Shown: piece after piece, positions 10,939 through 45,864 of the stretch | Layout: each line of letters starts with the position of its first letter | How positions within the stretch are numbered: position 1 is the stretch's first letter | NCBI GenBank assembly: GCA_044345375.1 | Contig: JBIJBF010000003.1 | Coordinates: 18,089-82,088, forward strand | Reading direction: 5' to 3' | DNA from: Alphaproteobacteria bacterium | GTDB lineage: Bacteria > Pseudomonadota > Alphaproteobacteria > CAISOG01 | Length of the DNA: 64,000 nucleotides | Position numbers and translations under genes: made by a program | Notes under the pieces: model-generated | Told to the model about the DNA's origin: nothing | What the model saw: the letters and a program-made list of their open reading frames with translations, nothing else | Database searches by the model: none

Positions 10939-11177
10939 CGCATCGCATCCATCAATCAGGGTTTTAACTTGCGCCGACGCTAACGCAAAACCGGGCGCTG
11001 TTCAACTGGGTCAACACGCGGTGGCAGCGGTTTGGCGGCCGGTTTTGGCGATGGCTCGGGGTGACGAGCGGTGAAATCTTTAATTTAAAGTCAAAAATTT
11101 GAAACACTATTGACATAAAAACAAAAATTAACAACAATTAAACGTTTATTGTTAACTTTTATTTGTTTAAGGTAATT

Positions 11178-20344: not shown

Positions 20345-20648
20345 ATTTTTTCCTGATTTGTTCATAATGCGTAAACAAACTTATTGATAGATTCAATATA
20401 TTACAATACATAATATTTACATATTTAAGGGGCTTATTTGTTTGGCTTGCTGCCCTATAGAAAACCAACCCTGTGGCTGTTGCGGCGGCGTTGGGCTCGT
20501 GGATAGTCGCTAAAGCGTACGAGCAAAGCGCCTTAGCCGCAGTGTTGCAGACGGGGCGGTAAGAATCTTGCGTAATGTCTTGCCAAAGCAGGTCAAGATG
20601 GGGTAACTGTTAAAAAGTTTCCCTAGTTATTGCATTGGATTTTTTTCT

Positions 20649-31705: not shown

Positions 31706-32179
31706 ATGACCAAAGATAGCAAAATTAAAAAAAATCAAACAAAAACGACTGAAGTTAAGCCAAAGCAAAAAACGCCAAAACCATTGCAGGTTGCAAAAGA
31801 AAATACTGTACCACCTGATCCTGATGTTGACCATGGTGGCAGCCAGCTTAGCCAAGAACTGAACGAATTGTTGGTTGCGGTGGCCAAGGGGCAGCCGTTA
31901 TTGGCGGGTGATAAGATGGGCGAGGTGGCGACGGTGTATCCAACCCTGGACCAACGATTAAAGGTGATGACGATGCTGTTAAAACAACAGGAGCAGGAAA
32001 TGGGCGACATGGTAGAAAAGGATGGCGGTGATGGACGAAAAAAAGCCAAAGCCGCGAAAATCCGCGCGGGCTATAGCGCCGATGAACTTCGCGAACTGCT
32101 CAGCCGCCATTTGGCTGAGCTGTCAACCAAAAAGCCGGCGGGCAAAACTGCTGGCCAGCCTGAGCGATCAGGAGGTTGA
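31706..32179 (+). CDS. Lys-rich small protein, possible small terminase or DNA-binding subunit; first gene of the phage-derived cluster
   Basis: 157 aa. K-rich N-terminus (MTKDSKIKKNQTKTTEVKPKQKTPKP) and a central coiled-coil. The 3' 158 nt overlap the terminase ORF out of frame, and an A7 run sits at the junction. Confidence 0.4.
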   Translation: MTKDSKIKKNQTKTTEVKPKQKTPKPLQVAKENTVPPDPDVDHGGSQLSQELNELLVAVAKGQPLLAGDKMGEVATVYPTLDQRLKVMTMLLKQQEQEMGDMVEKDGGDGRKKAKAAKIRAGYSADELRELLSRHLAELSTKKPAGKTAGQPERSGG

Positions 32180-33395
32180 ACGGCTGTATTACAGCTGGGC
32201 CTTTTGGGCGCGCCCTGAACAGCTGCCGCCGGCCGGTTTGTGGCGGGTGTGGCTGATTCTGGCGGGACGGGGCTGGGGCAAAACCCGAACCGGCGCCGAA
32301 TGGGTTAGCTGGCAGGTGCAAACCGGGCAGGCCAGCCGTATCGCCCTGGTCGCCGCAACGCTGCATGAGGCGCGCAGCGTGATGGTTGAGGGGGCCAGCG
32401 GCTTGTTAAGCTGCAGCCCGCCGTGGAACCGCCCGCGCTATGAGCCATCGAAACGGCTGCTGACCTGGCCCAACGGCGCGGTGGCGCAGTGTTTTGGCGC
32501 TGAGGAGCCGGACAGCCTGCGCGGACCGCAGTTTGATGCGGCCTGGTGCGACGAATTGGCCAAATGGCCCCGTCAGGGTGCCTGGGATCAGCTGATGTTC
32601 GGGCTGCGTTTGGGGCAAAACCCGCAGGTGGTGGCAACGACCACGCCCCAGCCCGTACCGCTGATCGAAAGCCTGGCAAAAAAGGCTGAGGTGGTGGTGA
32701 CAAGGGGCAGAACGCTGGACAACCGTGCCAATCTGGCGGCGGGATTTTTGAGCGAATTGGAGCAAACCTATGCCGGCACTTGGCTGGCTGCGCAGGAGTT
32801 GGAGGGCGAGCTGCTTAGCGATGCGCCAGACACCCTGTGGCCCGCTAAGATTTTGGCGGAGTCGGTGATCGAGCCGGCGTCTGCGCCGCCGATGGTGAAA
32901 ACGCTGCTGGCGATCGACCCTGCCGTAACCAGCCATAGCAGCAGCGACGAAACCGGGCTGGTGGTGGTGGGATTGGGGGAGGATGGGGTGTTTTATGTGC
33001 TGCAAGATGCCAGCGACCGGCTGCGGCCAGAGGTGCTGGTGGAACGGGTGGCGGCGCTGGTTGCCCTGCACAGCATTGGTCAGGTGGTGGTTGAGGTCAA
33101 TCAGGGCGGCGACTGGCTGCTGGAGGCCTTGAATAGTGCAACCTTGGATGCCGTGGTCCAGCCGGTGCGCGCGGTTCAGGACAAATGGACGCGGGCGGAA
33201 CCGGTGGCCATGCTGTATGCGCAGGGTCGGGTGAAGCATGTGGGCCGTCTGCCAACGCTGGAGGCGCAGCTGCGGGCCTGTCGTCGTGGGACTAGGAGCG
33301 GAGGAATGGATCGGGTGGATGCGCTGGTTTGGGCGATTCGCAGTTTGAAACAGGCCAGCGTTAAGCAGCGCGGGTTTGCGGTTCGGGTGGTTTAG
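32022..33395 (+). CDS. Phage terminase large subunit (GTA g2-like TerL)
   Basis: LLASLSDQEVERLYYSWAFWARPEQLPP...WRVWLILAGRGWGKTRTGAEW is the N-terminal signature shared by alphaproteobacterial GTA-type large terminases. An ATPase Walker region and a C-terminal nuclease-like DxD pattern are present. The exact start is uncertain (32022 or 32082). Confidence 0.8.
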   Translation: MAVMDEKKPKPRKSARAIAPMNFANCSAAIWLSCQPKSRRAKLLASLSDQEVERLYYSWAFWARPEQLPPAGLWRVWLILAGRGWGKTRTGAEWVSWQVQTGQASRIALVAATLHEARSVMVEGASGLLSCSPPWNRPRYEPSKRLLTWPNGAVAQCFGAEEPDSLRGPQFDAAWCDELAKWPRQGAWDQLMFGLRLGQNPQVVATTTPQPVPLIESLAKKAEVVVTRGRTLDNRANLAAGFLSELEQTYAGTWLAAQELEGELLSDAPDTLWPAKILAESVIEPASAPPMVKTLLAIDPAVTSHSSSDETGLVVVGLGEDGVFYVLQDASDRLRPEVLVERVAALVALHSIGQVVVEVNQGGDWLLEALNSATLDAVVQPVRAVQDKWTRAEPVAMLYAQGRVKHVGRLPTLEAQLRACRRGTRSGGMDRVDALVWAIRSLKQASVKQRGFAVRVV

Positions 33396-33703
33396 TTGGT
33401 GGATTCATCCAACTCTTGCAACAGCTTGTCTGCATCCTGCCTGCCAAGGATGGTCATGATTTCTGCGGTATCGTCAATCATGCGATAATAGATGCTATGA
33501 GATCCGCAAATTCTGCGCCGATATCCTTGGCGGATATAATCCACAGATGGATAAGAAAGAGGGTGTTTTGCAATTTTTTCAAAAGCATCAAACATTTTTT
33601 GAAGATAATAATCAGCTTTTTGTAATCCGTACTGCACAAAACCCCATTGATAAATTGTTACAAGATCTTCTTCGGCCTGTTTTTTAAGTTTATACGTTCC
33701 CAT
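33392..33703 (-). CDS. parE: Type II toxin ParE/RelE family
   Basis: 103 aa with RelE/ParE-fold features (YRRRICGSHSIYYRMIDD..IMTILGRQD). Low GC. Overlaps the upstream antitoxin gene. Confidence 0.75.
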   Translation of the reverse strand: MGTYKLKKQAEEDLVTIYQWGFVQYGLQKADYYLQKMFDAFEKIAKHPLSYPSVDYIRQGYRRRICGSHSIYYRMIDDTAEIMTILGRQDADKLLQELDESTN

Positions 33704-33944
33704 GAAAACCTAATTTCTTCAACGCCTCGGCCTTAATGTCTTCGGCTGTCATGGTACTAAATTCTCTGTTTTCCGCACTGATCAGTTTTGAACGAATATA
33801 ATCGATCTCGGTCGTTTCCTTTAACCTTGCGTGACGAATCAGAGCGTTAACGACTTCACTTTTGTTGAAATATTCTTGTTTTTCAACCTGCTGTTTAAGC
33901 CAATCATCATTGGGGGTGGTGAGAGAAATGCTTTGTCTTGTCAT
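33690..33944 (-). CDS. parD: Type II antitoxin ParD (RHH/CopG fold)
   Basis: The 84-aa protein starting MTRQSISLTTPNDDWLKQQVEKQEYFNKSEVVNALIRHARLKE is a typical ParD ribbon-helix-helix. AGGAG ribosome-binding site 9 nt upstream. Overlaps the parE start by 14 nt. Confidence 0.75.
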   Translation of the reverse strand: MTRQSISLTTPNDDWLKQQVEKQEYFNKSEVVNALIRHARLKETTEIDYIRSKLISAENREFSTMTAEDIKAEALKKLGFHGNV

Positions 33945-34036
33945 GATCCTGCTCCTGTAAACAACGATATCTGGTTCTATTATGCACCATATACGCACCA
34001 CACACAATATTTATCAACCTTATCAAGGAAAATTCC

Positions 34037-35236
34037 ATGAAAGACTGGATTCAACGACGTTTTTTAAGCCGTTCTGCGGATGCTGTGCCAGCGGCCAAGG
34101 CTAGCAGGGCGGGGCATTTGATGGTTTATGGCCAGCTGAATCAGCCGCGCTGGACACCGCGGCGCTACGACATGCTGGCTGAGGAGGGGTATCGGCGCAA
34201 CGTGGTGGCCTTTCGCTGCATTAAGGAGATTGCGCAGGGGGCGGCGGGGGTTCCCTGGATTTTGTATCAGGGCGATCAGGAGCTGGTTGAGCACCCGTTG
34301 CTGCGGCTGCTGACCAACCCCAACCCCACGCAGGGGCAGGCCAGTTGGGCTGAGATGCTGTACAGCAACCTGCTGATTGCCGGCAATGCCTATATCGAGG
34401 CGGTGGGGGATGGTGACCAGCTGCCGCGCGAGCTTTGGGTGCTGCGCCCCGATCGGATGACGGTGGTGGCGGGGATGTACGGCGTGCCAAAGGCTTATGA
34501 ATACCAGATCAACGGCCAAGTCTACCGCTGGTCGGCGGATGTGGCCAATGGCGCATCCCCCATCCTGCATCTGAAAAGCTTTCATCCGTTGGATGATTGG
34601 TACGGCCTGAGCCCGATGGAGGCGGCGGCCTATGCGATTGATCAGCACAACGAGGCATCCAAATGGAACCAATCGCTGTTGCAAAACGGCGCACGCCCCA
34701 GCGGCGCGCTGGTGGTTCAGATGAGCAAGGATGGGGATGCCAGCCTGAGCAGCGAACAGTTTGATCGGCTGAAAGCGCAGCTGGATGAGCAGTACAGCGG
34801 CCCTGTCAACGCGGGCAGACCGATGCTGTTGGAGGGCGGGTTGCAGTGGGTGGACATGATGATGAACCCCAGGGATTTGGATTACCTGAACGCCCGCTAT
34901 GCCGCTGCGCGTGAGATCGCCCTGGCCTTTGGCTATCCCCCCATGCTGTTGGGGATTCCGGGCGACAACACCTATAACAACCAGCGCGAGGCAAGGGTGG
35001 CGTTGTGGGAGCAAACCATCCTGCCGTTGGTGCACCAGCTGCGCGACGGGCTGAACAACTGGCTGCTGCGGCAGGCTTACGGGGTGGGGGAGGCGCCGTT
35101 GCGGATTGATTACGATCCAGATGCCATCAGCGCCCTGTCGCTGCGCCGTGAACAGCTGTGGGACAAACTGAACAAGGCGGAGTTTCTTAGCACCGATGAG
35201 AAGCGTCAGGCTGCTGGGTATGGGGTGATGGGCTAG
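34037..35236 (+). CDS. Phage portal protein, HK97 family
   Basis: 399 aa with portal-family motif spacing (WILYQGDQELVEHPLLRLL..., LHLKSFHPLDDWYGLSPMEAA..., PMLLGIPGDNTYNN) and the expected position after the terminase. Confidence 0.8.
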   Translation: MKDWIQRRFLSRSADAVPAAKASRAGHLMVYGQLNQPRWTPRRYDMLAEEGYRRNVVAFRCIKEIAQGAAGVPWILYQGDQELVEHPLLRLLTNPNPTQGQASWAEMLYSNLLIAGNAYIEAVGDGDQLPRELWVLRPDRMTVVAGMYGVPKAYEYQINGQVYRWSADVANGASPILHLKSFHPLDDWYGLSPMEAAAYAIDQHNEASKWNQSLLQNGARPSGALVVQMSKDGDASLSSEQFDRLKAQLDEQYSGPVNAGRPMLLEGGLQWVDMMMNPRDLDYLNARYAAAREIALAFGYPPMLLGIPGDNTYNNQREARVALWEQTILPLVHQLRDGLNNWLLRQAYGVGEAPLRIDYDPDAISALSLRREQLWDKLNKAEFLSTDEKRQAAGYGVMG

Positions 35237-35317
35237 CTGGGCTTGGAGTTGTTTGGGTTTTTTGGGGCTTGGTGGAGACAATCTGCCAAGTCTTTTTTTG
35301 TTTCTTAAGGGGATGTT

Positions 35318-35953
35318 GTGATGAGACAAGGATTGGTTTTGCTAACCGCGCCAGCGGTTGAGCCGGCCACGTTGGTTGAGGCGAAAAGCTATTTGGGTGT
35401 GCTGGATCCGGCCGAAGATGCGCTGATCGGCAATTTGATTACCGCTGCCAGACAGGCGGTGGAGAGCTATACGGGGCGGGTGTTGATCACCCAAAGTTGG
35501 CGTCTGACGCTGGACAACTGGCCAGAACCTAAGGTTGGGGTGGGATCGGACTGGTTAAGCCTGCAACAGGATTGGCCAGCGCAGTTTTCTGGGAACGGTG
35601 GACTGGTGGTGGTTGAGTTGCCCAAGGCGCCGCTGCAAAGCGTTAGCGGGGTTCGGGTGTACGACAGCAGCGGGGTGGCCAGCACGGTTGCGCCGTCCGC
35701 CTATGTCGTGGACACCACCACCACGCCAAGCCGGTTGGTGTTTGGCAGCAATATCAGCCTGCCCGCGGTGGGGCAGGTGGCACGCGGCATTGAGATCGAT
35801 TTTGTTGCCGGTTATGGCGCCTCAGCCACCAGCCTGCCAGCCATGCTGCGTCAGGCGGTGTTGGCGGGGGTTAAGGTTTTGTACGAGCGGTCGGGTGGCG
35901 CCATGTCGAGCGCGTTGCGGTTGGCCGAGCTGTTCAAGCTGAAAAGGATATAG
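35318..35953 (+). CDS. gp6-like head-tail connector protein
   Basis: The N-terminal pattern LVEAKSYLGVLDPAEDALIGNLITAARQAVESYTGRVLITQSWRLTLD is diagnostic of the phage gp6-like connector (Phage_connect_1) family. Confidence 0.75.
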   Translation: MMRQGLVLLTAPAVEPATLVEAKSYLGVLDPAEDALIGNLITAARQAVESYTGRVLITQSWRLTLDNWPEPKVGVGSDWLSLQQDWPAQFSGNGGLVVVELPKAPLQSVSGVRVYDSSGVASTVAPSAYVVDTTTTPSRLVFGSNISLPAVGQVARGIEIDFVAGYGASATSLPAMLRQAVLAGVKVLYERSGGAMSSALRLAELFKLKRI

Positions 35954-35956
35954 AGG

Positions 35957-36475
35957 ATGAGCGACACGGTTTTAACCCTTAGCCTTGCGGGCTTTCCCCC
36001 CCTTGGTTTGCCGCGGGTGGAGCAGGAGCTGCGCCCGATTGCCCAACATGCAACCCGCCGCACGGTGAATGGGGCGTTGCAGGACAGCGGTTGGAGCGGC
36101 TGGCAGAAATTTGAGACGGTCATTACCTGCGAGTTGCCCCTGCCGCCTGCTTTGGGCGGGATTTGGCCGGGGATGGCGGTCACGGTTGGTTGCGTGTTGC
36201 CGCTTTGTGAGCAATTAAGCGGCGCAACCAGCAAAACCTTGGCGAAAACGCCGGTGGCGGGCAGCGTTTATGCGGTGGATGGGCTTGGCAACCCGATTGC
36301 GGTGGTCAGCCTTAGCGGCAAGCTGCTGACGCTGGCCAGTTTTAGCGGCACCGCCAGCATCACCTATCGCCCCAGCCTTAGCATGCGGGTGGTGGATTTG
36401 CGTCTGACCACCAAGGAGGCGCCGCGTGGCAGCCGTAATGCCGGCGGTTGGCGGCTGGAATTAAGCGAGATTTAG
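35957..36475 (+). CDS. Hypothetical phage structural protein
   Basis: 172-aa intact ORF tightly packed between the connector and the next structural gene. Host-like GC. No recognisable motif. Confidence 0.4.
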   Translation: MSDTVLTLSLAGFPPLGLPRVEQELRPIAQHATRRTVNGALQDSGWSGWQKFETVITCELPLPPALGGIWPGMAVTVGCVLPLCEQLSGATSKTLAKTPVAGSVYAVDGLGNPIAVVSLSGKLLTLASFSGTASITYRPSLSMRVVDLRLTTKEAPRGSRNAGGWRLELSEI

Positions 36476-36486
36476 GGGGTCAAAAC

Positions 36487-38409
36487 ATGTTGTATTTTGC
36501 TTGGGTGGATGCCAACGAGGCTTGGAATGCCAGCCTGCATGCTCTTGAGGATGAGGCGTTGTTGCAGGTGGATCTGCAGCAGCTGGAGGGCAAGCCGGCG
36601 CAATTGCAGATTTTGGTGCGGAACCCAGGTCAGGGCTTGCTGAACCCCGCGCGCAAGACCCGCGCCTTTCTGAGCCATCAGGGGGCTGGGCAAAGCGTGC
36701 CGGTGTTGATGTTTGCGGGTCGGGTGATTGCGGTGGCGCAGGTGGACGGCAGCGAGCTGGTCCGCATCACCCTGACCGCCCTGCCTAATGACGCGGCGGC
36801 GTTGCTGCAGAGCTTTAGCGCTGGGTTAAAGGTGGCGCCCTATTGGGATGATTTGTTTGTCAGCCCCAGCCGTCGTGATGATCCGGATGAGGTGTTAAAG
36901 GCGAGAGATGCGGTGTATTGTTGGGACAAGCTGACCAACACGGTGTCGTTAAGCGGCCTGTTTGTCGGCAATCAAAGCCTGAATCTTGGCCAAAATTTTT
37001 TCTACGACAGTTTGCAGCAGGAATTGGCTGAAACGCCGCTTAGCGCGGTTGAGATGACGGTGGTGGCCGAATGGGCGCAGCAGGCGCGCGGTATAACCGA
37101 CGTAACCCGCCGGATTGAGCGGGCCTTTGGCGGGCAAAAAATCAACAGCCTGACCGGCCGGGATTTGGCGGCGCGGTGGCCATCGGCGGCCAAGCTGATT
37201 AATCGGCAATCGGGCTATCAGGTGGATCAGGCGCAGTTGCAGGAATATGTGCCGCCAGCTGGTGCCGCCAGTGTGTATCCCACCGCCAGCGTGTCGGTGG
37301 AGATGGGGGTTGAGGAGTACCCCTATCCAGCTGGTGTCACCAAGCCTGCGGGCAATAGCCGGCCGTTGTTTGTGAAGCGTTGGTGGTTTAACGCCAAGCT
37401 GGTGCTGAGCTGGCATTATCGGCAAAAACGGCGGGAGGAGCTGCTATTCCGGCTGAACCATGCGGTGCAGGCGGTGGCGCCAAGCGGTGGAGCGGTGCAA
37501 AAAATTGCGGTGACCATGCAGGAACTGCTGCTGGATACCGCGACGCCGACTTGGGGGGCTGGATACAGTTATCAGCTGGGGGATCAGGTGCGGTTTGGCG
37601 CCTTTGTCTACCAATGTTTGTTGGTGCATAGCGCATCCAACAGTTTTGCCAGCGATCTGGCGGCGCTGAAATGGAAGCAATTGGCCGCAGATGCCAGCGC
37701 GCTGGGCGCAGGGTGGCGCAGCAGCTTTTTTGTGACCAGCCGTGGCCAGCAGGCGGTACAGCACGCGATTGAACGGGCGCGGGCAGCGCTGGCCAGATCC
37801 CTGCGCGCCGTGCAGATTACCGTGCAGGCGCGTTGGGAGGATTTGCAGGGCGTGGGTTTGGATCACAGCCTGACGATCAGCGACCAACGCCTGCCGGGCG
37901 GCACGGCGACGGGCAAGGTGGTTGGTCTGCGTTTTTATGCGGATGGCGACAAGGGGCAGGCGTGGGCTGAGGTAACGATGGCTTGTGCGGTGGGGACTGG
38001 GGCGGCGCAACCAACGCCGGCGGCGGGCAGTGGCAGCTATACCGCTGATGGCTATGACAGCCTTGGCTGGCAGCCGCGTCAAAATGGCCAGTTGGCCAGT
38101 GTTAGCGGTATTGTCTACAACGATGATGTTGCGGGACAGCTTAGCCCGCAGGGATTGCTGTATCCCACCCAGCTGGATGCCCTGGATCTGGTGCGCAAAG
38201 TAACGGTGGTGAATGATGCGGAGCAGCAGAACGCCTATCTGTTGGCCAATCAGTATCCGCAGCGGCGCAACCTGCAGGCGGTGGTCAATGAGAAAAAGAC
38301 CAGCATCAAGCTGGAACTGCTGGACCTGACCGCCGATGACCAACTGCGCCAGCAGATCACCCTGACCATTCCCAATGCTTGGAGTGGTCCTAAGCAAATT
38401 GAGTTGTAA
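36487..38409 (+). CDS. Large phage structural protein, possible tail or receptor-binding protein with a carbohydrate-binding-like module
   Basis: 641 aa from the ATG at 36487 (AGGGGG ribosome-binding site). Contains YQLGDQVRFGAFVYQCLLVHSASNSFASDLAALKWKQL, which resembles the CBM5/12-like Y..N....P...W.. motif seen in phage tail proteins. Confidence 0.4.
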   Translation: MLYFAWVDANEAWNASLHALEDEALLQVDLQQLEGKPAQLQILVRNPGQGLLNPARKTRAFLSHQGAGQSVPVLMFAGRVIAVAQVDGSELVRITLTALPNDAAALLQSFSAGLKVAPYWDDLFVSPSRRDDPDEVLKARDAVYCWDKLTNTVSLSGLFVGNQSLNLGQNFFYDSLQQELAETPLSAVEMTVVAEWAQQARGITDVTRRIERAFGGQKINSLTGRDLAARWPSAAKLINRQSGYQVDQAQLQEYVPPAGAASVYPTASVSVEMGVEEYPYPAGVTKPAGNSRPLFVKRWWFNAKLVLSWHYRQKRREELLFRLNHAVQAVAPSGGAVQKIAVTMQELLLDTATPTWGAGYSYQLGDQVRFGAFVYQCLLVHSASNSFASDLAALKWKQLAADASALGAGWRSSFFVTSRGQQAVQHAIERARAALARSLRAVQITVQARWEDLQGVGLDHSLTISDQRLPGGTATGKVVGLRFYADGDKGQAWAEVTMACAVGTGAAQPTPAAGSGSYTADGYDSLGWQPRQNGQLASVSGIVYNDDVAGQLSPQGLLYPTQLDALDLVRKVTVVNDAEQQNAYLLANQYPQRRNLQAVVNEKKTSIKLELLDLTADDQLRQQITLTIPNAWSGPKQIEL

Positions 38410-38432
38410 CCATCATCCAGAAAAGAAAGCGT

Positions 38433-39131
38433 GTGAGCATGTCAGAGCTGTTGTATATACAGGTTCCCCTGCAAGGGAAAACCCTGTCAGAAATTGGAAT
38501 TTTTGAGGGCTACGCCAGTGTGTTTGGCGTGATTGATCGCCAACAAGATCAGGTGATGCCGGGGGCTTTTCGCAAAAGCCTGCTGAACGCTGAGGCCAAT
38601 CGGGCGATGCCAAAATTGTTGTGGCAGCATGATCCCGCGCAGCCGATTGGGGTTTGGCAGATGCTGAAGGAGGACAGCACCGGTTTGTATGTGCGCGGGC
38701 AGCTGCTGTTGGATTTGCCGCGCGCGCAGGAGGCCTATGTGCTGCTAAAGGCTGGCGCGATGGACGGGCTTAGCATCGGTTATGAGGTGGTGCAGGCCAG
38801 CAAGGATCGCCGCAGCGGTATCCGCCAGCTGTTGGAGGTGAAGTTGTGGGAAATATCGCTGGTCACCTTTGCCGCCAACACTTCCGCAAGGGTTACCGTG
38901 GTGAAGCACGGGCAGGGGGATGGGTTGCCCGAAGCGCAATCGCCCCGTTTGTTTGAAAAATTTCTGCGTGATGCAGGATTCAGCCGCCGCCAAGCGGTCG
39001 CGCTGACCAATCACGGCTGGCCAGGCCTGAAAAGCTTAGCCAGCCAGCCGCGGGATGCGGCGCTACAGGACACAGAATACCGCCAGCTGGTCGCCAAATT
39101 GCGGCAGACGGTTAGCATTCTGCAATCCTAA
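38433..39131 (+). CDS. HK97-family prohead protease
   Basis: The N-terminal LSEIGIFEGYASVFGVIDRQQDQVMPGAFRKSL and the later MDGLSIGY pattern are typical of the HK97 prohead protease (S78). Confidence 0.8.
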   Translation: MSMSELLYIQVPLQGKTLSEIGIFEGYASVFGVIDRQQDQVMPGAFRKSLLNAEANRAMPKLLWQHDPAQPIGVWQMLKEDSTGLYVRGQLLLDLPRAQEAYVLLKAGAMDGLSIGYEVVQASKDRRSGIRQLLEVKLWEISLVTFAANTSARVTVVKHGQGDGLPEAQSPRLFEKFLRDAGFSRRQAVALTNHGWPGLKSLASQPRDAALQDTEYRQLVAKLRQTVSILQS

Positions 39132-39163
39132 CACTTTTATCAAAACAACAAAGGAATGATGAG

Positions 39164-40387
39164 ATGACGACAGTGTACAACAACGATGCCCCCACCGACG
39201 TGTTGCAGGTGGTGGATCAAATGAACCAAGTGTTTGCCGAGTTTAAAGCGCAGAACAACCAGCTGATTGCGCAGGTTGAGCGCAAAAATGCCGCCGATGC
39301 GGTAACCGTGGACACCGTAAACCGCCTGAACCAACTGCTGCAAAAACAACAGGACAGAATTGACAGCCTGAGCATCAGCGCCAAACGCAGCCCGCTGAGC
39401 CTAAACCAAGGTGGCTATGTTGGCTTGGCCGAGCAGGAGCATAAGGAGGCCTTTATGAGCTATCTGCGCAAGGGGGATGAGCTGGGGCTGCAAGGCTTTG
39501 AACGCAAGGCGTTGAGCAGCACCACCGATGCCGATGGTGGCTTTAGTTTGCCCAAGATTTTGGCCGATTTTATGATTCAGACCATTTTTGATACCAGCCC
39601 GATCCGGCAGATTGCCAATGTGGTGACGGTTGGCAATGATGCCTTTGAGGTGTTGGCGGATGCGACCGAGGCCGCGGCGGCCTGGGTGACGGAGGCGCAG
39701 GCACGGGCTGAAACCGCAACGCCCACCTTTAACAAAATCCGCATTCCGGTTCAGGAATTGGCGGCATCCCCTAGGGCATCGCAGCGTTTGTTGGACGACA
39801 GCAGTTTTGACATGGAGGCCTTTTTGGCGGCGGAGGTGGCCGGCAAATTTGCCAGACTGGAAAACACGGCCTTTGTTTCGGGGACGGGCACTGGCCAACC
39901 ACGCGGTTTCTTAACCTATGCCGCTGGTACCGCCTGGGGGCAGATTGAGCAGGTCAAAACCGGTGTGGCGGGCGCATGGCCGGCCAGCAACCCCGCCGAT
40001 ATCTTGCTGGATTTGATGACCAAGCTGAAAAGCAGCTATCTGAACGGCGCGGCATGGGTGTTGAACCGCAACACGCTGGCCGATATTCGCAAGTTTAAGG
40101 ATACCACCGGGCAGTATATTTGGCAGCCAGGTTTGGGAACCGCATCCAGCACCCTGTTGGGCTACCCCGTTTATCTGGCTGAGGATATGCCAAGCAAGGC
40201 CGCCAGCAGCCTTTCGGTTGGGTTTGGCAATTTTAAACAGGGCTACACCATTGTGGACCGCGTGGGGATCCGCCTGCTGCGCGACCCCTATACCGCCAAG
40301 CCGTTTGTGGTGTTTTACTTTACCAAACGCACCGGCGGCGATGTGGTGAATTTTGAGGCAATCAAACTGCTGCAATTCGCGGTGTAG
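39164..40387 (+). CDS. HK97-fold major capsid protein with an N-terminal scaffolding (delta) domain
   Basis: 407 aa. Coiled-coil N-terminus, then GFSLPKILADF, DEAFLAAEVAGKFARLENTAFVSGTG and a WQPGLGT region characteristic of HK97-family major capsid proteins. Follows the protease. Confidence 0.8.
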   Translation: MTTVYNNDAPTDVLQVVDQMNQVFAEFKAQNNQLIAQVERKNAADAVTVDTVNRLNQLLQKQQDRIDSLSISAKRSPLSLNQGGYVGLAEQEHKEAFMSYLRKGDELGLQGFERKALSSTTDADGGFSLPKILADFMIQTIFDTSPIRQIANVVTVGNDAFEVLADATEAAAAWVTEAQARAETATPTFNKIRIPVQELAASPRASQRLLDDSSFDMEAFLAAEVAGKFARLENTAFVSGTGTGQPRGFLTYAAGTAWGQIEQVKTGVAGAWPASNPADILLDLMTKLKSSYLNGAAWVLNRNTLADIRKFKDTTGQYIWQPGLGTASSTLLGYPVYLAEDMPSKAASSLSVGFGNFKQGYTIVDRVGIRLLRDPYTAKPFVVFYFTKRTGGDVVNFEAIKLLQFAV

Positions 40388-40402
40388 TTGTTAAGTGCAT
40401 AG

Positions 40403-40446
40403 GGGGGGGCTGAGCAGCGTTTTGCTTGGCCCCCTTTTTGTTTTTT
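40403..40446 (+). terminator. Hairpin plus T-tract immediately downstream of the capsid gene
   Basis: GGGGGC-(16-nt loop)-GCCCCC followed by tttttgtttttt. It sits between the capsid stop (40387) and the next gene start (40462). Confidence 0.6.
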
Positions 40447-40461
40447 GGAGGGAGCAAGGCG

Positions 40462-41625
40462 ATGCCTATACGCACGTCTATCATTACGACGCAAAATTTT
40501 TCAGGCTACAGCGAGGCCGCTAGTCGGGATGAAAACCCCGATGCTGGCGTGCTGGACTTGGCCAATGAGCAGGGCAGTGATGAGGTGGTGTTGATCGATC
40601 CCTATGCCGCGCTGGATTTGCCCGCCGAAATCACGTTGCGTGCCGGTTTGGTTCCGGTCTATGTGGCCAGCACCAACAACGCGCAGGCGCAGCTGTTGGC
40701 CAATGGCGCGCCCAGCAACCCGGTGGCGGTCAATTTGTACCAAAACACCGGCCGCTTTGCCGGCAGCAATTTGGTGAATGATGAGGCCTTTTACGCGCAG
40801 GAACGCCAGCGCACCATTCAGGAGTTGCGGTTGATCTACAACAATCAGTTTAGCTGGCGCCCCTTTGGCAGCAATGTGGTGTTTAGCGGTTCGGGGGCTA
40901 GCGTTAACGGTTATCCGCTGGTGTTGGGCAGCGGCAACAGTGTGTACAGCAAGCCCTTTGCGGTGCAGCCAAGCGGTGGGTTGGCGACGCTGACCCTGTA
41001 CTACAGCTACAACAGCGGCACCGCGCAATACGGCGCGCAGACCGACAGCGGTTTTGTTAGTAACCCTGCCCATAAGTTGGTTAGCCCAGTGGACAGCAGT
41101 TATAGCGGCGCGCCCAGCAGTTGGCAGGCGATTAAGCTTAGCAGCGGGGTTGAAACACTGTACAGCGCGACCCTGCTGAACCGGCAATTCTATCGCGCCT
41201 ATGGCGGCGACTATGTGGTGGGGATGACCGCCGATCAGGTGCGGCAAAAATGCTTTCGCATCAGCGCGGTGGCCTATAGCACCAGCGGCAACGCCAACAC
41301 CGAGTTTGACACGATGATGGGGGTGGTGAACGCCAGCTTGTGGGGCAGCGGATCCTGCCGCACCCGTATTGGCCAGCCAAGCGATTTGACGAAATATGAG
41401 GATGTGTTGGCGGCGGGCAGCCATCTGGCCAGCGGCGATTTTGCTAGCCCCGAACAGGTGATCAGCCTGGCCAGCGCGTTGCAGCAGGGGATGGCCAAAA
41501 TCCAGCTGAATCTTGGGTTGGACAGCAACGGCCAGCCGATTTTTGGCCAGTATCAATCGGTGGCCTGGAGCCACCCCGGGGGGGATGCGAGCCTGATTGA
41601 TGTGACTTTTGTACCAATCGGTTAG
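40462..41625 (+). CDS. Hypothetical phage structural protein, possible tail or baseplate component
   Basis: 387 aa from the ATG at 40462 (GGAGGG ribosome-binding site). Ser/Gly/Asn-rich and beta-predicted. No recognisable motif. Confidence 0.4.
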   Translation: MPIRTSIITTQNFSGYSEAASRDENPDAGVLDLANEQGSDEVVLIDPYAALDLPAEITLRAGLVPVYVASTNNAQAQLLANGAPSNPVAVNLYQNTGRFAGSNLVNDEAFYAQERQRTIQELRLIYNNQFSWRPFGSNVVFSGSGASVNGYPLVLGSGNSVYSKPFAVQPSGGLATLTLYYSYNSGTAQYGAQTDSGFVSNPAHKLVSPVDSSYSGAPSSWQAIKLSSGVETLYSATLLNRQFYRAYGGDYVVGMTADQVRQKCFRISAVAYSTSGNANTEFDTMMGVVNASLWGSGSCRTRIGQPSDLTKYEDVLAAGSHLASGDFASPEQVISLASALQQGMAKIQLNLGLDSNGQPIFGQYQSVAWSHPGGDASLIDVTFVPIG

Positions 41626-41657
41626 CGATTGATTTCATTTTTTTAAGGAGAAAGCCT

Positions 41658-43238
41658 ATGACGATTGTGTTGCGAACGGTTAAGGGCGCGCCCCTGACCA
41701 TCACGGAAATTGACGGCAATTTTAGCCAGTTGACGGACAGGCTGACGGCGCTGGAGCAGAATCCGCCGCTGGCGGAAAGCATTGGTGCGATCAGCGTGCA
41801 GGGCGATCAGCTGAGCATTCTGGGCAATCGGGGCAGCAATTTTGGCCAATTTGCCCTGCCGGTTGCGCAATTGGTGGCGCGTGGGGTTTGGGCAACCGCC
41901 ACCGCCTATGCCAAGCTGGAGATGGTCAACGCGCCCGATGGCAATGGCTATATTTGCCTAACCGCGCATACCAGCGGGGTGTTTGCCACCGATTTGGCCG
42001 CCAACCGTTGGGCTAAGCTGGTCAATGCTGGCACGGCTGGTGTAACCGGTAAGGTGTTAACCGGCGCAGGCCTAACCGGTGGCGGTGATTTGTCGGTGGA
42101 TCGAACCCTAAGCTTAGCATCGATGCCTGCCAACAGCCTAAAGGGCAACAACAGTGCCAGCACGGCGGTGCCGGTCGATTTAACCGCCGCGCAGGCCGCC
42201 GCCATGCTGCCAGCGATGCTTGGCGACAGCGGCAGTGGTGGGGCTAAGGGGTTGGTGCCAGCCCCGGCGGCTGGGGATGCGGCGGCGGGCAAATTCCTGA
42301 AAGCCAATGGCACTTGGGCGGTGCCTGCAGGCGGCGGTGGGGGCGGTAGCGTTGGTGGAAGCTCAGGGCAGCTGCAGTACAACAGCGCTGGCGTTTTTGC
42401 TGGCGCCACCAATCTTAAGGTGATCGGCAGTGGCGCGGGGTTGAATTTTGGCGGGGTGGCGCTGCAGCCTGCGGCCAGTGCGGGCAGCCTGAATCTGTAT
42501 GCCAACAACGAGCTTGGCCAGGCTTTCTTAAGCCTGCGCAGCGATACCGCCCCCGAAGCGTTTGTGCAGGAATGTTTGGGGCATCGCAGTGTGGCGATCA
42601 TTTTGCCCAGCAGCGGCGGGTTGGTGGCCTCATTTGGGGTTAACACCAGCAACGCCGGCAGCATTACCCACAGCAGCAGCGCGGCGATAGGCTATTGGAT
42701 CGCCAATGCCACAACAGCGACGGCCAATAATGATGTCTATTTTGCCACGGCGGCCAATTATTTTTACCGCAACCTTGGGTTTTACCACGCCGCGACCCTG
42801 AACTATCCCGATGCCAGCTATGGCGCTGGCGCGACTGGAACCCGCATCGGCGTTGGGTTGGTGGCCAATGCCGCCAGCAATCTGTTGGCCGGTGATACCC
42901 TATTGACCGCTGGCTGTGGTTTTCAGTATTCGACCAACCGTGGGGATAGCAATTGGCAGCTGGTTAGCTTTGACGGCACCACCCAAACCACGGTGAACAC
43001 CGGCATGGTTTTTGCCCCCGCCAAGCTTTATCAGTTTGAGCTGTTTGCCGCGCCCAATGGCGGCAGCCTGAATTGGCGGATCAAAAACCTGACCGACAAC
43101 AGCATGCAGAGCGGGGTGGTCACCACCAACCTGCCGCCAGCCAGCACCGGACTGATGATGATGGCGGGTGTGCGCAACCTAGGCGCCAGTATCCGCAACA
43201 TGCAAATGAAACGCATGTATGGAACTAGCTCTATTTGA
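41658..43238 (+). CDS. Phage tail fibre protein
   Basis: Motifs LTGGGDLSVDRTLSL, KGNNSASTAVPVDLT and GLVPAPAAGDAAAGKFLKANGTWAVP, a poly-Gly hinge (AGGGGGGSVGGSSG), and QLQYNSAGVFAGATNL are all typical tail-fibre repeats. Confidence 0.75.
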   Translation: MTIVLRTVKGAPLTITEIDGNFSQLTDRLTALEQNPPLAESIGAISVQGDQLSILGNRGSNFGQFALPVAQLVARGVWATATAYAKLEMVNAPDGNGYICLTAHTSGVFATDLAANRWAKLVNAGTAGVTGKVLTGAGLTGGGDLSVDRTLSLASMPANSLKGNNSASTAVPVDLTAAQAAAMLPAMLGDSGSGGAKGLVPAPAAGDAAAGKFLKANGTWAVPAGGGGGGSVGGSSGQLQYNSAGVFAGATNLKVIGSGAGLNFGGVALQPAASAGSLNLYANNELGQAFLSLRSDTAPEAFVQECLGHRSVAIILPSSGGLVASFGVNTSNAGSITHSSSAAIGYWIANATTATANNDVYFATAANYFYRNLGFYHAATLNYPDASYGAGATGTRIGVGLVANAASNLLAGDTLLTAGCGFQYSTNRGDSNWQLVSFDGTTQTTVNTGMVFAPAKLYQFELFAAPNGGSLNWRIKNLTDNSMQSGVVTTNLPPASTGLMMMAGVRNLGASIRNMQMKRMYGTSSI

Positions 43239-43282
43239 TGGGGAAAATTGTTTTTAATATTAACATTTAATTAGTAAATCTC

Positions 43283-43546
43283 ATGGATAAAATAACCATC
43301 AATAATGCACTAAATCGTCTTCTTGAGCAGGCCGCAAAACGCGGCGCGCAACAAGCCCTGGCTGAGCTGGGGTTGCATGACCGCAATGCTGGAGAAGATA
43401 TGCGTGATTTGCGGGGGTTGTTGGATGCTTGGCGCACCGCAAAGCGTACCATCGGACAAACCCTGCTGAGAACGTTAACGGTTATGTTGCTGATCGGCAT
43501 GCTGACGGGCGTTTTGATCAAGTTAAAGATGGTTGCTTCGAACTAA
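43283..43546 (+). CDS. Putative holin or small membrane protein of the lysis cassette
   Basis: 87 aa. Charged N-terminus, a single C-terminal transmembrane helix (LLRTLTVMLLIGMLTGVLI) and a basic tail. Immediately upstream of the endolysin and overlapping it. AT-rich start context. Confidence 0.45.
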   Translation: MDKITINNALNRLLEQAAKRGAQQALAELGLHDRNAGEDMRDLRGLLDAWRTAKRTIGQTLLRTLTVMLLIGMLTGVLIKLKMVASN

Positions 43547-43580
43547 TTCATTTGGGAGCAGGAATTTCGGGAGGATGGAG

Positions 43581-44069
43581 ATGACGGATGGATTCGACTG
43601 GGCCATTGAAGTTGTTTTGCGGCACGAGGGTGGGTATGTGGACGATCCAGATGATCATGGCGGTGCCACCAATTTTGGCATTTCGCAACGCCAATACCCC
43701 GATTTGGATATCAAAAAACTGACGCGTGAGGATGCGATTGCTATCTATCGCCGCGATTGGTGGCAGGCCTATGGCTATGGTCAGATTACAGACATGATGG
43801 TGGCCACCAAAGTGTTGGATTTATCGGTGAATATGGGGCCAGGCACCGCCCATCGCTTGACGCAGCGGGCACTGCGCGCGGTGGGGTTGATGGTTTCTGA
43901 GGATGGGGTGTTGGGGCCGGTGACGCTGGGAGCGTTGAATCAGGTGATGCCGTCAAACCTGTTAAGCGCGCTGCGGGCTGAGGCGGCGGGGTATTACCGC
44001 TGTTTGGCGCTTAAGCAAAAATCTTTTGAAAAATTTCTAACAGGCTGGTTAAATCGTGCCTATGCGTGA
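43581..44069 (+). CDS. GH108-family endolysin (N-acetylmuramidase) with a C-terminal PG_binding_3 domain
   Basis: FDWAIEVVLRHEGGYVDDPDDHGGATNFGIS is the GH108 catalytic signature. The C-terminal part (LGALNQV...AEAAGYYRCLA) resembles the peptidoglycan-binding module. GGGAGG ribosome-binding site before the ATG at 43581. Confidence 0.8.
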   Translation: MTDGFDWAIEVVLRHEGGYVDDPDDHGGATNFGISQRQYPDLDIKKLTREDAIAIYRRDWWQAYGYGQITDMMVATKVLDLSVNMGPGTAHRLTQRALRAVGLMVSEDGVLGPVTLGALNQVMPSNLLSALRAEAAGYYRCLALKQKSFEKFLTGWLNRAYA

Positions 44070-44109: not shown

Positions 44110-45864
44110 ATGGTTGATCAATCTGACAATATAGATCCAACGGCTGCACCCCCTGAGGAGGCGGCCGCGCCTATCGATGCGGGCGCGGTTGGCTTTAATC
44201 CACGCCGCCGTTCGGCGCTGAGGTTTCAGGCACCGCTTGTAACGGTTAAAGAGGAGGGGGTGGAGACAAGGGAATCCCCATCCGCACAGGACGCGTCGCC
44301 GGCTAAAGATCCGCAGCAGGCGGCCGCTTCCGTTGCTGGTGATTCGGTGGAAAAAACGGCCGTGGAATCGGTAACGGTTGTTGAAGATCCTGTTAATCCT
44401 GATTTGACCCGTCCGGCCGATTTTCCTAAGGCGACCTCGCCCAAAGAAATGGTGCCTGAGCCCAAAAGGGGCGGGGATGCCCCCCTGGCTCCACCGCCGT
44501 CCAGTGTTGTGACCAGGCCATTTGCCGGCAAATCTTTTGTTGGCCCGACGGAAGGGTCAGTGGCGGGTGATCAAAAGGCCGATAGGGCAAGTTCAACCAG
44601 CGTGCAAGAGCCAGTGGTTGAGGCAAGCAAGGGTGGCGGGGCTGCCCCAACCGTTGCTGAAACCGCCGAATCGGTGCCCGATTTTCAAGACTGGCTGCGA
44701 CAGCGGCAGGAGGCGTTGCGAAAAGCGCGCGAACGTGCCCTGAGACGTGAAGAGGCTTTGGGGGATGCGGCCAAAACGGTTCAAGACTCTGCATCCGATT
44801 CCCCCAAAGAGGTTGCGGAGCGGCAGGAACCTGTTTTGCAGACGATCGGGAGTCAATCCACCGCCAATGCTGCCGAAAATCAGGGCAATGAAAGCAAAAC
44901 GGCGGCGGCACCGATCGGCTTTAACCCCAATCGGGGCAAGCGTTCAACCGCGTTTAACATTCCCCCGCCTGCAGATGCGGTGGTATCCACCACGCCTAAG
45001 GCTAAGGCCGAATCAACCGCGGCTGAGGAGCCGTTGGCGGCCAGCCGTGCGGCGCCACAAGATGACGGGCCAAATCAGGCTTTTGATCTCAACGAAGCCG
45101 CCCTAGGCACGCATGGCACGGTGGAAAAGGTTCTCAGCTCAACCGAACTGATCGAAACGCCCGCGCTGAAAGCGTTGAAAAATTTTATGGATGGCAAAGC
45201 GCCGGATAAGGAAAACGCGGCTGCGGTTGCGGTCAAATCCAAGAAAAGTTTTTTTAGCATCAAAAAAATCCGGCAAAGGCTTTATGACTTTGTTTTTTGG
45301 GCTGTAAGTTTTCTGGTGCTGGCTGGTGGATGGACGTTGTTTGTCTATGGAATCATGGTGTTGTTTATTGCGATCAACCCCATTCCTTTTGTGGATGCTG
45401 GTGGCAATGTGTTGTGGAGTTTTGATGCGCGCTACACAAGCCACTGGATCGGGCTGCGGCAGTATTTTAACGCTGGTGCGGTGATTCCATGGTCGTTGGT
45501 GTGGGCGGTGGTGTTGGCTTTTTGTGTGTGGTTGTTGCCTGGAATTGCGCTTTTAAAGCAAGGGATTCAGCCGACCAGCTCGGTTTTCAAGCGTCAGCTT
45601 GATCGGCGTTGGTATCAGATAAAGCGCTTGTGGAGAAAGCCCGATGAGGCCGAAAAGGTGTTGTTAAAAACATCGATGGCCGATATTGAGGGGATGTTGA
45701 CGCAAGCCCGTAAGGAGGCTGAGGCGGATCTGAAAAAACGTAAGGTGGCCGCGGCGGGCGGCACCCCAGGTGGCAGTCAGGCCAATTCTATGGCGCCGGC
45801 GGGCCCAAGCCCCGCCGCGATGGCCAGTGCCGCGGCCAGCAGAGGGTCTGGCGGCAATGGATAG
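44110..45864 (+). CDS. Membrane protein of unknown function with a long disordered N-terminal region
   Basis: 584 aa. About 400 aa of P/A/E/S/T-rich low complexity that includes two GFNP.R..S.AF motifs and a coiled-coil, then about four transmembrane helices (FVFWAVSFLVLAGGWTLFVYGIMVLFIAI...WSLVWAVVLAFCVWLLPGIALL) and a basic, Gly-rich tail. Confidence 0.35.
   Translation: MVDQSDNIDPTAAPPEEAAAPIDAGAVGFNPRRRSALRFQAPLVTVKEEGVETRESPSAQDASPAKDPQQAAASVAGDSVEKTAVESVTVVEDPVNPDLTRPADFPKATSPKEMVPEPKRGGDAPLAPPPSSVVTRPFAGKSFVGPTEGSVAGDQKADRASSTSVQEPVVEASKGGGAAPTVAETAESVPDFQDWLRQRQEALRKARERALRREEALGDAAKTVQDSASDSPKEVAERQEPVLQTIGSQSTANAAENQGNESKTAAAPIGFNPNRGKRSTAFNIPPPADAVVSTTPKAKAESTAAEEPLAASRAAPQDDGPNQAFDLNEAALGTHGTVEKVLSSTELIETPALKALKNFMDGKAPDKENAAAVAVKSKKSFFSIKKIRQRLYDFVFWAVSFLVLAGGWTLFVYGIMVLFIAINPIPFVDAGGNVLWSFDARYTSHWIGLRQYFNAGAVIPWSLVWAVVLAFCVWLLPGIALLKQGIQPTSSVFKRQLDRRWYQIKRLWRKPDEAEKVLLKTSMADIEGMLTQARKEAEADLKKRKVAAAGGTPGGSQANSMAPAGPSPAAMASAAASRGSGGNG

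Follow-up and report, generated by a model that had tools for sequence, protein, structure and literature searches.

Is a compact cluster of phage-type genes in an alphaproteobacterial genome a domesticated gene transfer agent (GTA), or is it what remains of a prophage? The question is raised by positions 31706–44069 of a 64,000-nt stretch from an Alphaproteobacteria bacterium (assembly GCA_044345375.1, contig JBIJBF010000003.1, positions 18,089–82,088 of the forward strand). We call the whole 64-kb stretch the window and positions 31706–44069 the cluster. An earlier note on this DNA, made from its letters, had described twelve co-directional intact genes here and had weighed a novel GTA-type element against a cryptic, podovirus-like remnant. 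Our analysis indicates that the cluster is probably a host-maintained, reduced GTA-like element, in which a head of the type known from the Rhodobacter capsulatus GTA (RcGTA) is combined with a tail tip of other phage ancestry and a lysis set. As such, it falls among the reduced GTA clusters of Holosporaceae and Rickettsiales, as a member with a fuller gene set and a local rearrangement. The host is an uncultured freshwater alphaproteobacterium, and organisms of this kind are present in time-series metagenomes from Lake Mendota, Loclat and Umea.

The gene set itself is as the earlier note had described it. An open reading frame (ORF) check of the window found twelve uninterrupted plus-strand ORFs across the cluster, all at or near the positions reported before, and searches of the window proteins against Pfam, NCBIfam and PHROGs upheld the genes that had been named: the large terminase, the portal, the gp6 connector, the protease, the HK97 capsid protein and the GH108 endolysin (Table 1). 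With the exception of one slot that holds a toxin/antitoxin pair, intergenic gaps inside the cluster measure 4–82 nt and thus leave no space for hidden genes. We compared the cluster with loci from conspecific strains (L003 and L015–L018), from a sister lineage (including L004, L005, L010, L011, L039 and L040) and from more distant relatives (L001, L013 from Ca. Paracaedibacter symbiosus, and L014), and with a canonical RcGTA-like cluster (L019).

A head and packaging module of RcGTA type

By sequence comparison, the head and packaging module is of RcGTA type, with homologues of RcGTA genes g2–g6 encoding the large terminase (TerL), portal, protease, capsid protein and adaptor. All five match their counterparts in L019, at identities of 31–47% and E-values of 3e-30 to 1e-111 (TerL 47%, E 1e-111; portal and protease, 45% each; capsid protein 40%; adaptor 31%); the rest of the cluster has no match in L019. 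Among PDB sequences, the best match of the portal is RcGTA Rcc01684 (3e-97, the next match being at 1e-14) and that of the capsid protein is RcGTA Rcc01687 (1.9e-88, the next at 8e-41), and the best solved-structure match of the adaptor is the RcGTA adaptor Rcc01688 (8e-12). TerL contains the Pfam domains Terminase_6N (6.5e-24) and Terminase_6C (2.1e-13), and a PDB sequence search with it gave no useful match. The TerL of a true siphophage is as close to it as L019 g2. The earlier note had counted a GTA-type terminase motif in favour of a GTA; this motif does not discriminate, since true phages and Firmicutes have terminases that are just as close.

Between the window and strain L015, the capsid proteins have no amino-acid changes against 11 synonymous differences in their genes. 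For the same pair, the ratio of nonsynonymous to synonymous substitution rates (dN/dS) is 0.05 for TerL, which is among the most constrained genes, and 0.15 for the portal.

The canonical cluster L019 is GenBank record MW091529.1, which INPHARED lists as 'Bacteriophage sp. 103231' and which is filed, at 18,183 bp, as a partial phage genome. It contains a full g1–g15 RcGTA-like cluster followed by efflux-pump genes, and probably represents a bacterial GTA locus that was wrongly classed as viral. We did not accept the best 'phage' matches as evidence for a phage relative, one of them, MW091529.1, being itself a canonical GTA cluster. An RcGTA-like structural module is also found in the circular 45-kb siphophage MW202777.

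Upstream of TerL lies a gene for a small lysine-rich protein, a candidate small terminase (TerS). That this small ORF, which the earlier note had listed, is a real gene is borne out by its conservation and constraint: it recurs upstream of TerL in L004, L005 and L010 at 47–51% identity, and its dN/dS against L015 is 0.18. The protein family has an invariant C-terminal motif, YSADELRELL..HLAELS. The protein matched no Pfam, PHROG or NCBIfam family, and comparison of its profile by hhalign with an RcGTA-like g1 and with a phage TerS found no similarity; we accordingly claim no homology with RcGTA parts for it. In the window lineage, the small ORF and the TerL ORF share about 90–150 nt; both frames look conserved relative to L004, and the gene calls of L005 have no overlap.

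A tail tip of siphophage ancestry

The genes that follow the adaptor gene encode a 172-aa protein and a 640-aa protein. We modelled the structure of the former, whose family has 321 representatives, from an 82-sequence alignment of database matches. The predicted model (pLDDT 93) has a tube or distal-tail (Dit) fold, and the protein is best read as a Dit-like protein or tube-initiator ring. For the 640-aa protein, an AF2 model with a pLDDT of 75 gave 39 Foldseek matches in the PDB at E ≤ 1e-3, the best at 5e-9 with a probability of 1.0. Nearly all are baseplate hub, tail-tip or central-spike proteins, among them those of PVC, AFP, VgrG1, Mu gp44, 80alpha Tal, Bxb1 and T5, and we refer to the protein as the hub. 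Some hub relatives have a CBM5/12-like insertion. The hub has few relatives: only 10 word-sharing relatives were found among 5.8 billion proteins, and a tblastn search of 50,697 phage genomes (INPHARED) found no match. Its gene always stands beside a member of the 172-aa family. PDB sequence searches with the hub and 172-aa profiles returned no useful match, and hhalign comparison of both profiles with RcGTA-like g9, g12 and g13 gave probabilities below 2%; because of this negative result, we claim no homology between the tail tip and RcGTA parts.

Two further genes, for a 387-aa and a 526-aa protein, are found downstream of the capsid gene. The 387-aa protein occurs only in these clusters: the 5.8 billion proteins include just four homologous clusters, all in the window and sister lineages. 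It is 66% identical to a 393-aa protein of L005, whose gene comes directly after the hub gene, and is weakly similar to the proteins encoded after the hub in L001 and L013. Its dN/dS is 0.06–0.12, and a PDB sequence search gave no useful match. Since the ancestral order puts the gene after that of the hub, we presume that it encodes a tail-tip accessory or receptor-binding protein. An upstream TTG start at 40426 was excluded because of the hairpin after the capsid gene. The 526-aa protein is the least conserved structural protein relative to the sister lineage (57%) and has no Pfam, PHROG or PDB match. A stretch of about 60–110 aa matches, at 29–49% identity, genes downstream of the hub gene in 15 of 16 phage loci from IMG/VR, at distances of about 0.4–7 kb (mostly 1–3 kb), and we describe the protein as fibre-like.

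In phage contigs L020 and L023, the gene order is tape measure, 172-aa homologue, hub. From the folds, this phage gene order and the negative RcGTA profile comparisons, we conclude that the 172-aa, hub and fibre genes constitute a siphophage Dit–hub–fibre module of non-RcGTA ancestry. The same genes contradict the view of the cluster as a podovirus remnant: after the adaptor come a tube-fold protein and a hub, both of siphophage type, and there is no β-propeller nozzle of the T7 gp12 or P22 gp10 type.

Selection and composition

Pooled over the cluster, dN/dS between the window and L015 is 0.10 (Sd 147, Nd 48; P = 2e-51 against neutrality); the flanking genes for TrcR, YebC and MgtE have values of 0.03–0.12 in the same pair of strains. 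Within the sister clade, the pooled ratio is 0.15 between L005 and L010 and 0.11 between L005 and L011, at an unsaturated dS of about 0.22, and single genes range from 0.06 to 0.49 in both comparisons, the previously unassigned genes included. Between the two lineages, all twelve genes persist at a dS of about 1–1.8.

In composition, the cluster resembles its surroundings, with a GC content of 58.6% (flanks 56–61%) and a third-position GC content (GC3) of 0.69–0.76 (host genes 0.64–0.78). The window contains no tRNA genes, a search of it for att-like flanking repeats gave short, chance-level matches only, and no integrase, replication or regulatory and lysogeny genes flank the cluster. The host-like composition and the absence of mobility and regulation genes reported in the earlier note therefore stand. 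The comparisons that it had suggested, of dN/dS and of synteny, likewise came out in favour of its GTA-like alternative: all genes of the cluster are under purifying selection, which resembles that on the flanking housekeeping genes, and the cluster occupies the same locus in conspecific strains and has its gene set near ftsZ in the sister lineage. Given a dN/dS of about 0.1, retention at dS above 1, host-like GC3 and the lack of integration, replication and regulatory genes, we conclude that the element is domesticated and kept by selection, and is not a decaying prophage.

Gene order in relatives

The conspecific strains have the same locus with the same order. The sister lineage consists of freshwater metagenome-assembled genomes (MAGs) labelled Holosporaceae, Rhodospirillaceae or Alphaproteobacteria bacterium, whose proteins are 57–85% identical to those of the cluster. 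Its order is small gene, TerL, portal, protease, capsid, 149-aa gene, adaptor, 172-aa gene, hub, 393-aa gene, 542-aa gene, DUF6127, GH108 and GTA_holin_3TM. The sister cluster lies directly downstream of ftsZ and dagK, and in the window ftsZ is 13 kb upstream of the cluster. FtsZ is 61% identical between the lineages, compared with 57–85% for the cluster proteins. The presence of ftsZ near both clusters and the comparable divergence fit co-divergence with local rearrangement.

The rearrangement consists of a swap of the protease–capsid block and the adaptor–172-aa–hub block in the window lineage relative to the sister lineage, with the protease gene downstream of the hub gene in the window and directly after the portal gene in the sister lineage. 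Terminator-like hairpins occupy two of the three junctions of the swap. A scan of L005:2200–16700 found no terminator-like hairpin in the portal–protease gap (5896–6018) or after the capsid gene (8021–8108). The earlier note had pointed to an order unlike that of RcGTA. This is correct for the window but does not amount to a difference of type, since the sister lineage has the RcGTA-like succession portal, protease, capsid, adaptor. The proposal of a novel GTA type is likewise not supported: the head genes are g2–g6 homologues, the order is a local rearrangement, and the class has been described by George et al. 2022 (Genome Biol Evol, PMC9254644).

Farther afield, Ca. Paracaedibacter symbiosus and related MAGs have portal, protease, capsid, adaptor, stopper, a 129-aa gene, a 164-aa homologue, EamA and hub genes. 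The EamA transporter gene is on the opposite strand between the Dit-like and hub genes (L013 8937–10031; L001 5661–6551); its insertion in two distant members indicates a host gene fixed inside a phage-derived cluster. A further locus, L014 (CAZITL010000007.1), is binned as 'uncultured Verrucomicrobiales' and has portal, protease, capsid, 172-aa homologue and hub genes in the Paracaedibacter order. Identities for its head genes are 38–55%, and the locus points to either mis-binning or transfer outside Alphaproteobacteria.

The missing tail

Searching the 64-kb window by tblastn with all L019 proteins, we found matches to g2–g6 only. With no g7–g15 homologue present, the reported lack of a major tail or tape-measure gene is confirmed for the window. 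Between the adaptor and the tail tip, the window has no stopper, terminator, tube, chaperone or tape measure; the place directly upstream of the 172-aa gene, which the tape-measure gene takes in phages, is held by the adaptor gene.

One explanation is that the cluster belongs to a complete, long-tailed GTA whose stopper, terminator, tube, chaperone, tape-measure and holin genes are at loci outside the window. RcGTA has its own accessory genes, for lysis, fibres and head spikes, at separate loci. Paracaedibacter retains stopper- and terminator-like genes, and the window covers 64 kb of a contig that is at least 115 kb long. Scattered GTA genes are also on record in Rickettsiales, as is a terminase gene away from the main cluster in Holosporaceae symbionts (George et al. 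2022). However, no gene for a tube or a tape measure lies close to the cluster in any of the six genomic loci or the long metagenomic contigs with this architecture. In the phages to which this type of tail tip belongs, the tape measure is encoded immediately upstream of the 172-aa gene, where the adaptor gene is found here, and the profile searches of George et al. detected no tail tube in Holosporaceae genomes. We therefore regard a long tail encoded elsewhere as unlikely.

Portal fusions and a variable cargo slot

In the sister lineage, the portal gene is polymorphic at one and the same locus. Besides a short form of 408–426 aa, there are three long forms, which share a linker rich in Gly, Asp and Pro and then diverge into different C-terminal domains, each followed by a different small ORF (Table 1). 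The 607-aa fusion is present on 6 contigs from 4 NCBI accessions. The small ORFs after the long portals could be immunity genes, and the arrangement is that of a polymorphic toxin–immunity system in which the portal is the carrier. The window portal, of 399 aa, has no C-terminal toxin domain: it ends with ...KRQAAGYGVMG, the exact point where the toxin-bearing extensions of the sister lineage start, and a hairpin and the adaptor gene come next. A literature search on GTAs with polymorphic toxins yielded, judging by title and abstract, no paper about a GTA. The nearest precedent is provided by the MuF-domain polymorphic toxins of temperate phages (Jamet et al. 2017, PMC5576092; Zhang et al. 2012, PMC3482391). 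Like these, the loci of the sister lineage, and only they, would combine a head-internal, constant N-terminal carrier with variable C-terminal toxins and a small candidate immunity gene; unlike in MuF toxins, the portal itself would act as carrier, within a domesticated GTA-like cluster rather than a prophage.

The earlier gene list was incomplete in one respect, having overlooked two minus-strand genes in the 640-nt gap between the TerL and portal genes. They encode a ParE-family toxin and an antitoxin-like protein without a family match in Pfam. The GC content of this gap is 39.6%, compared with 58.6% for the cluster. In strain L015, the ParE gene is deleted and a truncated, 59-aa remnant of the antitoxin persists; elsewhere the slot holds a GIY-YIG gene (L005), a porin gene (L004) or nothing (L010). 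Since its contents differ among strains and lineages, we consider the slot a variable cargo site.

These two features lend some weight to the idea that the particle has been repurposed as a protein carrier, with toxins on the portal or in the head and not DNA. The sister-lineage portals, with a shared linker and interchangeable C-terminal domains, are what such a carrier might look like, and the slot next to the portal gene houses the toxin/antitoxin pair in the window and the GIY-YIG gene in L005. In addition, the literature on phage-derived loci includes proposals of MuF-toxin fusions and of a capsid-packaging route of secretion (PMC3482391, PMC5576092), and George et al. raise a non-DNA role. 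On the other hand, the window portal is without an extension, and the window toxin/antitoxin pair is encoded on the opposite strand and undergoes loss in L015, like ordinary selfish cargo. TerL is intact and strongly constrained, which argues for continued DNA packaging, and carriage of toxins and of DNA are in any case mutually compatible. We regard a switch to protein carriage in place of DNA as likewise unlikely.

Unlikely alternatives: prophage remnant or satellite

A cryptic prophage remnant, podovirus-like or other, that has stayed intact by chance and has no host function would account for the phage derivation of the cluster, for the cargo inserted in the TerL–portal gap (ParE toxin/antitoxin, porin, GIY-YIG) and for the two lost genes and rearranged order of the window lineage. 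This explanation is largely refuted, and we hold it to be very improbable: dN/dS is about 0.1 in three independent comparisons, the twelve genes are retained at dS above 1, codon usage is host-like, there is no integrase, att site or tRNA gene, and the hub fold is not that of a podovirus nozzle. A capsid-forming satellite, making its own small heads and using the tails of a helper phage, is hardly credible: although TerS-like, TerL, portal, protease, capsid and adaptor genes without a tube or tape measure recall the packaging module of capsid-forming phage-inducible chromosomal islands, reportedly the subject of work by Alqurainy and colleagues in 2023, the flanks have no integrase, AlpA, primase/replicase or att site, the location is fixed with a divergence that tracks the host, and the cluster encodes its own hub, fibre and lysis genes.

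A proposed stub-tailed particle

The reading that we favour, a reduced GTA-like cluster maintained by its host, suggests the following sequence of events. In a subpopulation of cells, TerS and TerL would package DNA through the portal into HK97-type heads matured by the protease, and the adaptor would then cap the portal. A stub composed of the Dit-like ring, a hub trimer and the fibres would dock directly, or nearly so, onto the adaptor, giving a short-tailed particle. Cell lysis by the GH108 enzyme would release the particles, and the fibres, together with the carbohydrate-binding hub, would bind a recipient. We infer such stub-tailed, DNA-carrying particles from the genes.

Several points weigh against this proposal. 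The head genes are 37–48% identical to those of siphophage MW202777 and 31–47% identical to those of L019; identities as equal as these are compatible both with descent from the RcGTA domestication and with a separate capture of a related phage. The small lysine-rich protein is a candidate TerS by virtue of its position. As a rule, hub and Dit proteins are assembled on a tape measure, and the cluster has no gene for one; the window covers 64 kb of genome, and tube, tape-measure and holin genes could lie elsewhere. The window lineage has lost the 149-aa gene and the three-transmembrane (3TM) holin gene of the sister lineage, and, through its rearrangement, the 387-aa, fibre and lysis genes now come after a strong terminator-like hairpin. 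The CtrA box, TTAA-N7-TTAA, was looked for across the window and has 0 matches there. Finally, no particles were seen by transmission electron microscopy of related symbionts (George et al. 2022, PMC9254644).

Comparison with known systems

George et al. 2022 (PMC9254644) found RcGTA-like clusters with head, portal and adaptor genes and without a detectable tail tube to be widespread in Holosporaceae and Rickettsiales and to be under purifying selection. An amoeba-symbiont clade retains stopper and terminator genes, and unassigned genes after the adaptor may, according to these authors, be divergent tail genes or recruited phage genes. Earlier accounts of reduced clusters are those of Lang & Beatty 2007 and Shakya et al. 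2017, as cited in PMC9254644. The cluster resembles these reduced GTAs in having capsid, portal, protease and adaptor genes, no detected tube or tape measure, no prophage functions and a signature of purifying selection. With the Ca. Paracaedibacter symbiosus cluster, it shares a common architecture that includes the 172-aa/hub pair, and the retention of stopper and terminator in the Paracaedibacter layout agrees with the amoeba-symbiont clade of George et al. Unlike in their clusters, the TerL gene and the small gene upstream of it adjoin the window cluster, a lysis cassette lies inside it and the gene order is rearranged. The host differs as well: its GC content is 57% and its contigs are large, which does not clearly point to a highly reduced endosymbiont.

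The likeness to RcGTA (Bardy et al. 2020, PDB 6TBA) extends to the g2–g6 homologues, which have the same order in the sister lineage, to the GH108-type endolysin and GTA_holin_3TM of that lineage, and to the absence of replication and integration genes. Unlike RcGTA, the window has no g7–g11 homologues, and by sequence and profile comparison its tail tip is not that of g12–g15. An unrelated small protein takes the position of g1, the lysis genes are inside the cluster, and no CtrA box was found in the window. A third comparison is with siphophages of about 50 kb from IMG/VR (L023–L038) and with contigs L002 and L020, which have the 172-aa, hub and fibre-stretch genes in the same order at 25–49% identity. 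In those phages a tape measure of 700–1000 aa precedes the 172-aa gene, whereas in the window the adaptor does. The 387-aa protein has no counterpart in the siphophage loci.

Lysis genes, flanks and other features

Two genes for putative lysis functions end the cluster. The first had been called a holin. The gene is present, but its product is a DUF6127 protein with one C-terminal transmembrane helix, for which a holin role is putative only. It precedes the GH108 gene in both lineages and, by this position, is putatively lysis-associated. The likely start of the second gene, for the endolysin, is at 43575, as set from the L015 gene call and the onset of tblastn matches. In the sister lineage a GTA_holin_3TM gene comes after the endolysin gene; the window cluster has none.

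Table 1. Positions of the cluster features in the window, and of long portal genes with their downstream ORFs in the sister lineage
Feature	Position	Strand	Assignment and remarks
Small Lys-rich protein, 157 aa	31706..32179	+	Candidate small terminase, by position
Large terminase, TerL	32031..33395	+	RcGTA g2 homologue; start candidates 32031, 32082 or 32091
ParE-family toxin	33392..33703	-	PF05016, 7.3e-12
Antitoxin-like ORF	33690..34007	-	Pairing by position; overlaps ParE start by 14 nt
Portal, 399 aa	34037..35236	+	RcGTA g3 homologue; Phage_portal 2.8e-85
Terminator-like hairpin	35264..35294	+	13 pairs and T-run; portal/adaptor rearrangement junction
Head-tail adaptor	35318..35953	+	RcGTA g6 homologue; TIGR02215 6.5e-40, Phage_connect_1 4e-07, phrog_442
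172-aa tail-tube-fold protein	35957..36475	+	Read as distal-tail (Dit) or tube-initiator ring
Tail hub, 640 aa	36487..38409	+	gp27/Mu gp44/VgrG/Tal type; likely start 36487
Prohead serine protease	38433..39131	+	RcGTA g4 homologue; Peptidase_S78 3.9e-34
HK97-fold major capsid protein	39164..40387	+	RcGTA g5 homologue; TIGR01554 3e-110
Terminator-like hairpin	40401..40438	+	17 pairs (8 G-C) and T-run; just after capsid gene, capsid/387-aa junction
387-aa protein	40462..41625	+	Likely start 40462; confined to these clusters
Tail-fibre-like protein, 526 aa	41658..43238	+	Short stretch shared with phage fibre genes
DUF6127 membrane protein, 87 aa	43283..43546	+	PF19622 3e-22, phrog_10540
Endolysin, GH108 muramidase with PG_binding_3	43575..44069	+	PF05838 4e-24, PF09374 8e-12
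L010 portal, 607 aa	L010:2759-4840 (locus)		Colicin E5 tRNase PF12106, 36.6 bits (cut-off 25); downstream ORF 80 aa
L039 portal, 593 aa	L039:6001-8085 (locus)		DUF4258 PF14076, 27.8 bits (cut-off 25); downstream ORF 96 aa
L040 portal, 611 aa	L040:6001-8368 (locus)		CHAP-like, below cut-off; downstream ORF 176 aa

The housekeeping flanks are as previously described, with a DUF1013 gene and yebC on the left and cpaA and obg on the right. In full, the left flank encodes TrcR (DUF1013), YebC, MgtE and PhoH, and the right flank a 584-aa membrane protein, CpaA, Obg and GlnA. The cluster divergently adjoins trcR, a cell-cycle regulator gene, an adjacency that may be coincidence. The 584-aa protein (44110–45864), encoded between the endolysin gene and cpaA, has a disordered N-terminal part rich in Ala, Pro and Glu and C-terminal transmembrane helices. 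It is kept in conspecific strains at a dN/dS of 0.10, matches no family, and has no detected homologue in the 21.9-kb sister locus L005. We considered whether it belongs to the element or is a fused holin and rejected both, in view of the lack of a family match and of a sister counterpart and of its dissimilarity to the 3TM holin.

Elsewhere in the window there are two islands of low GC content (11163–13001 and 18587–21458; 43–47%, compared with 57% overall). One encodes a 612-aa protein without a Pfam match, and the other a 592-aa HEAT-repeat protein and a 269-aa Sel1-repeat protein. Eukaryote-like repeat proteins of the HEAT and Sel1 type are typical of protist-associated bacteria.

Significance

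The reduced GTA clusters of symbiont-like Alphaproteobacteria have been puzzling, as conserved loci that seem to encode heads without a means of attachment or delivery. The genes after the adaptor that George et al. left unassigned encode a Dit-like protein with a tube fold, together with a hub and a fibre, in support of the idea that phage genes were recruited. With tail-tip genes that come from a different siphophage family and are constrained like those of the head, the question shifts from the reason for keeping a head to how a tail tip without a tube or tape measure would work. Taken alone, the window presents a well-preserved, rearranged member of a class already described.

The portal–toxin polymorphism of the sister lineage suggests an alternative function, in protein delivery or antagonism. 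We put forward, as a tentative and rather speculative extension, that the reduced GTA clusters of Holosporaceae type, far from being degenerate remains, encode a distinct particle design, in which an RcGTA-type head sits directly on a siphophage tail tip without a tube or tape measure and, in at least one lineage, doubles as a delivery vehicle for portal-fused toxins with accompanying immunity genes. If this is true, such a head-on-tail-tip toxin carrier would be a capsid-based system of antagonism or host interaction, of a kind that has been predicted and never demonstrated.

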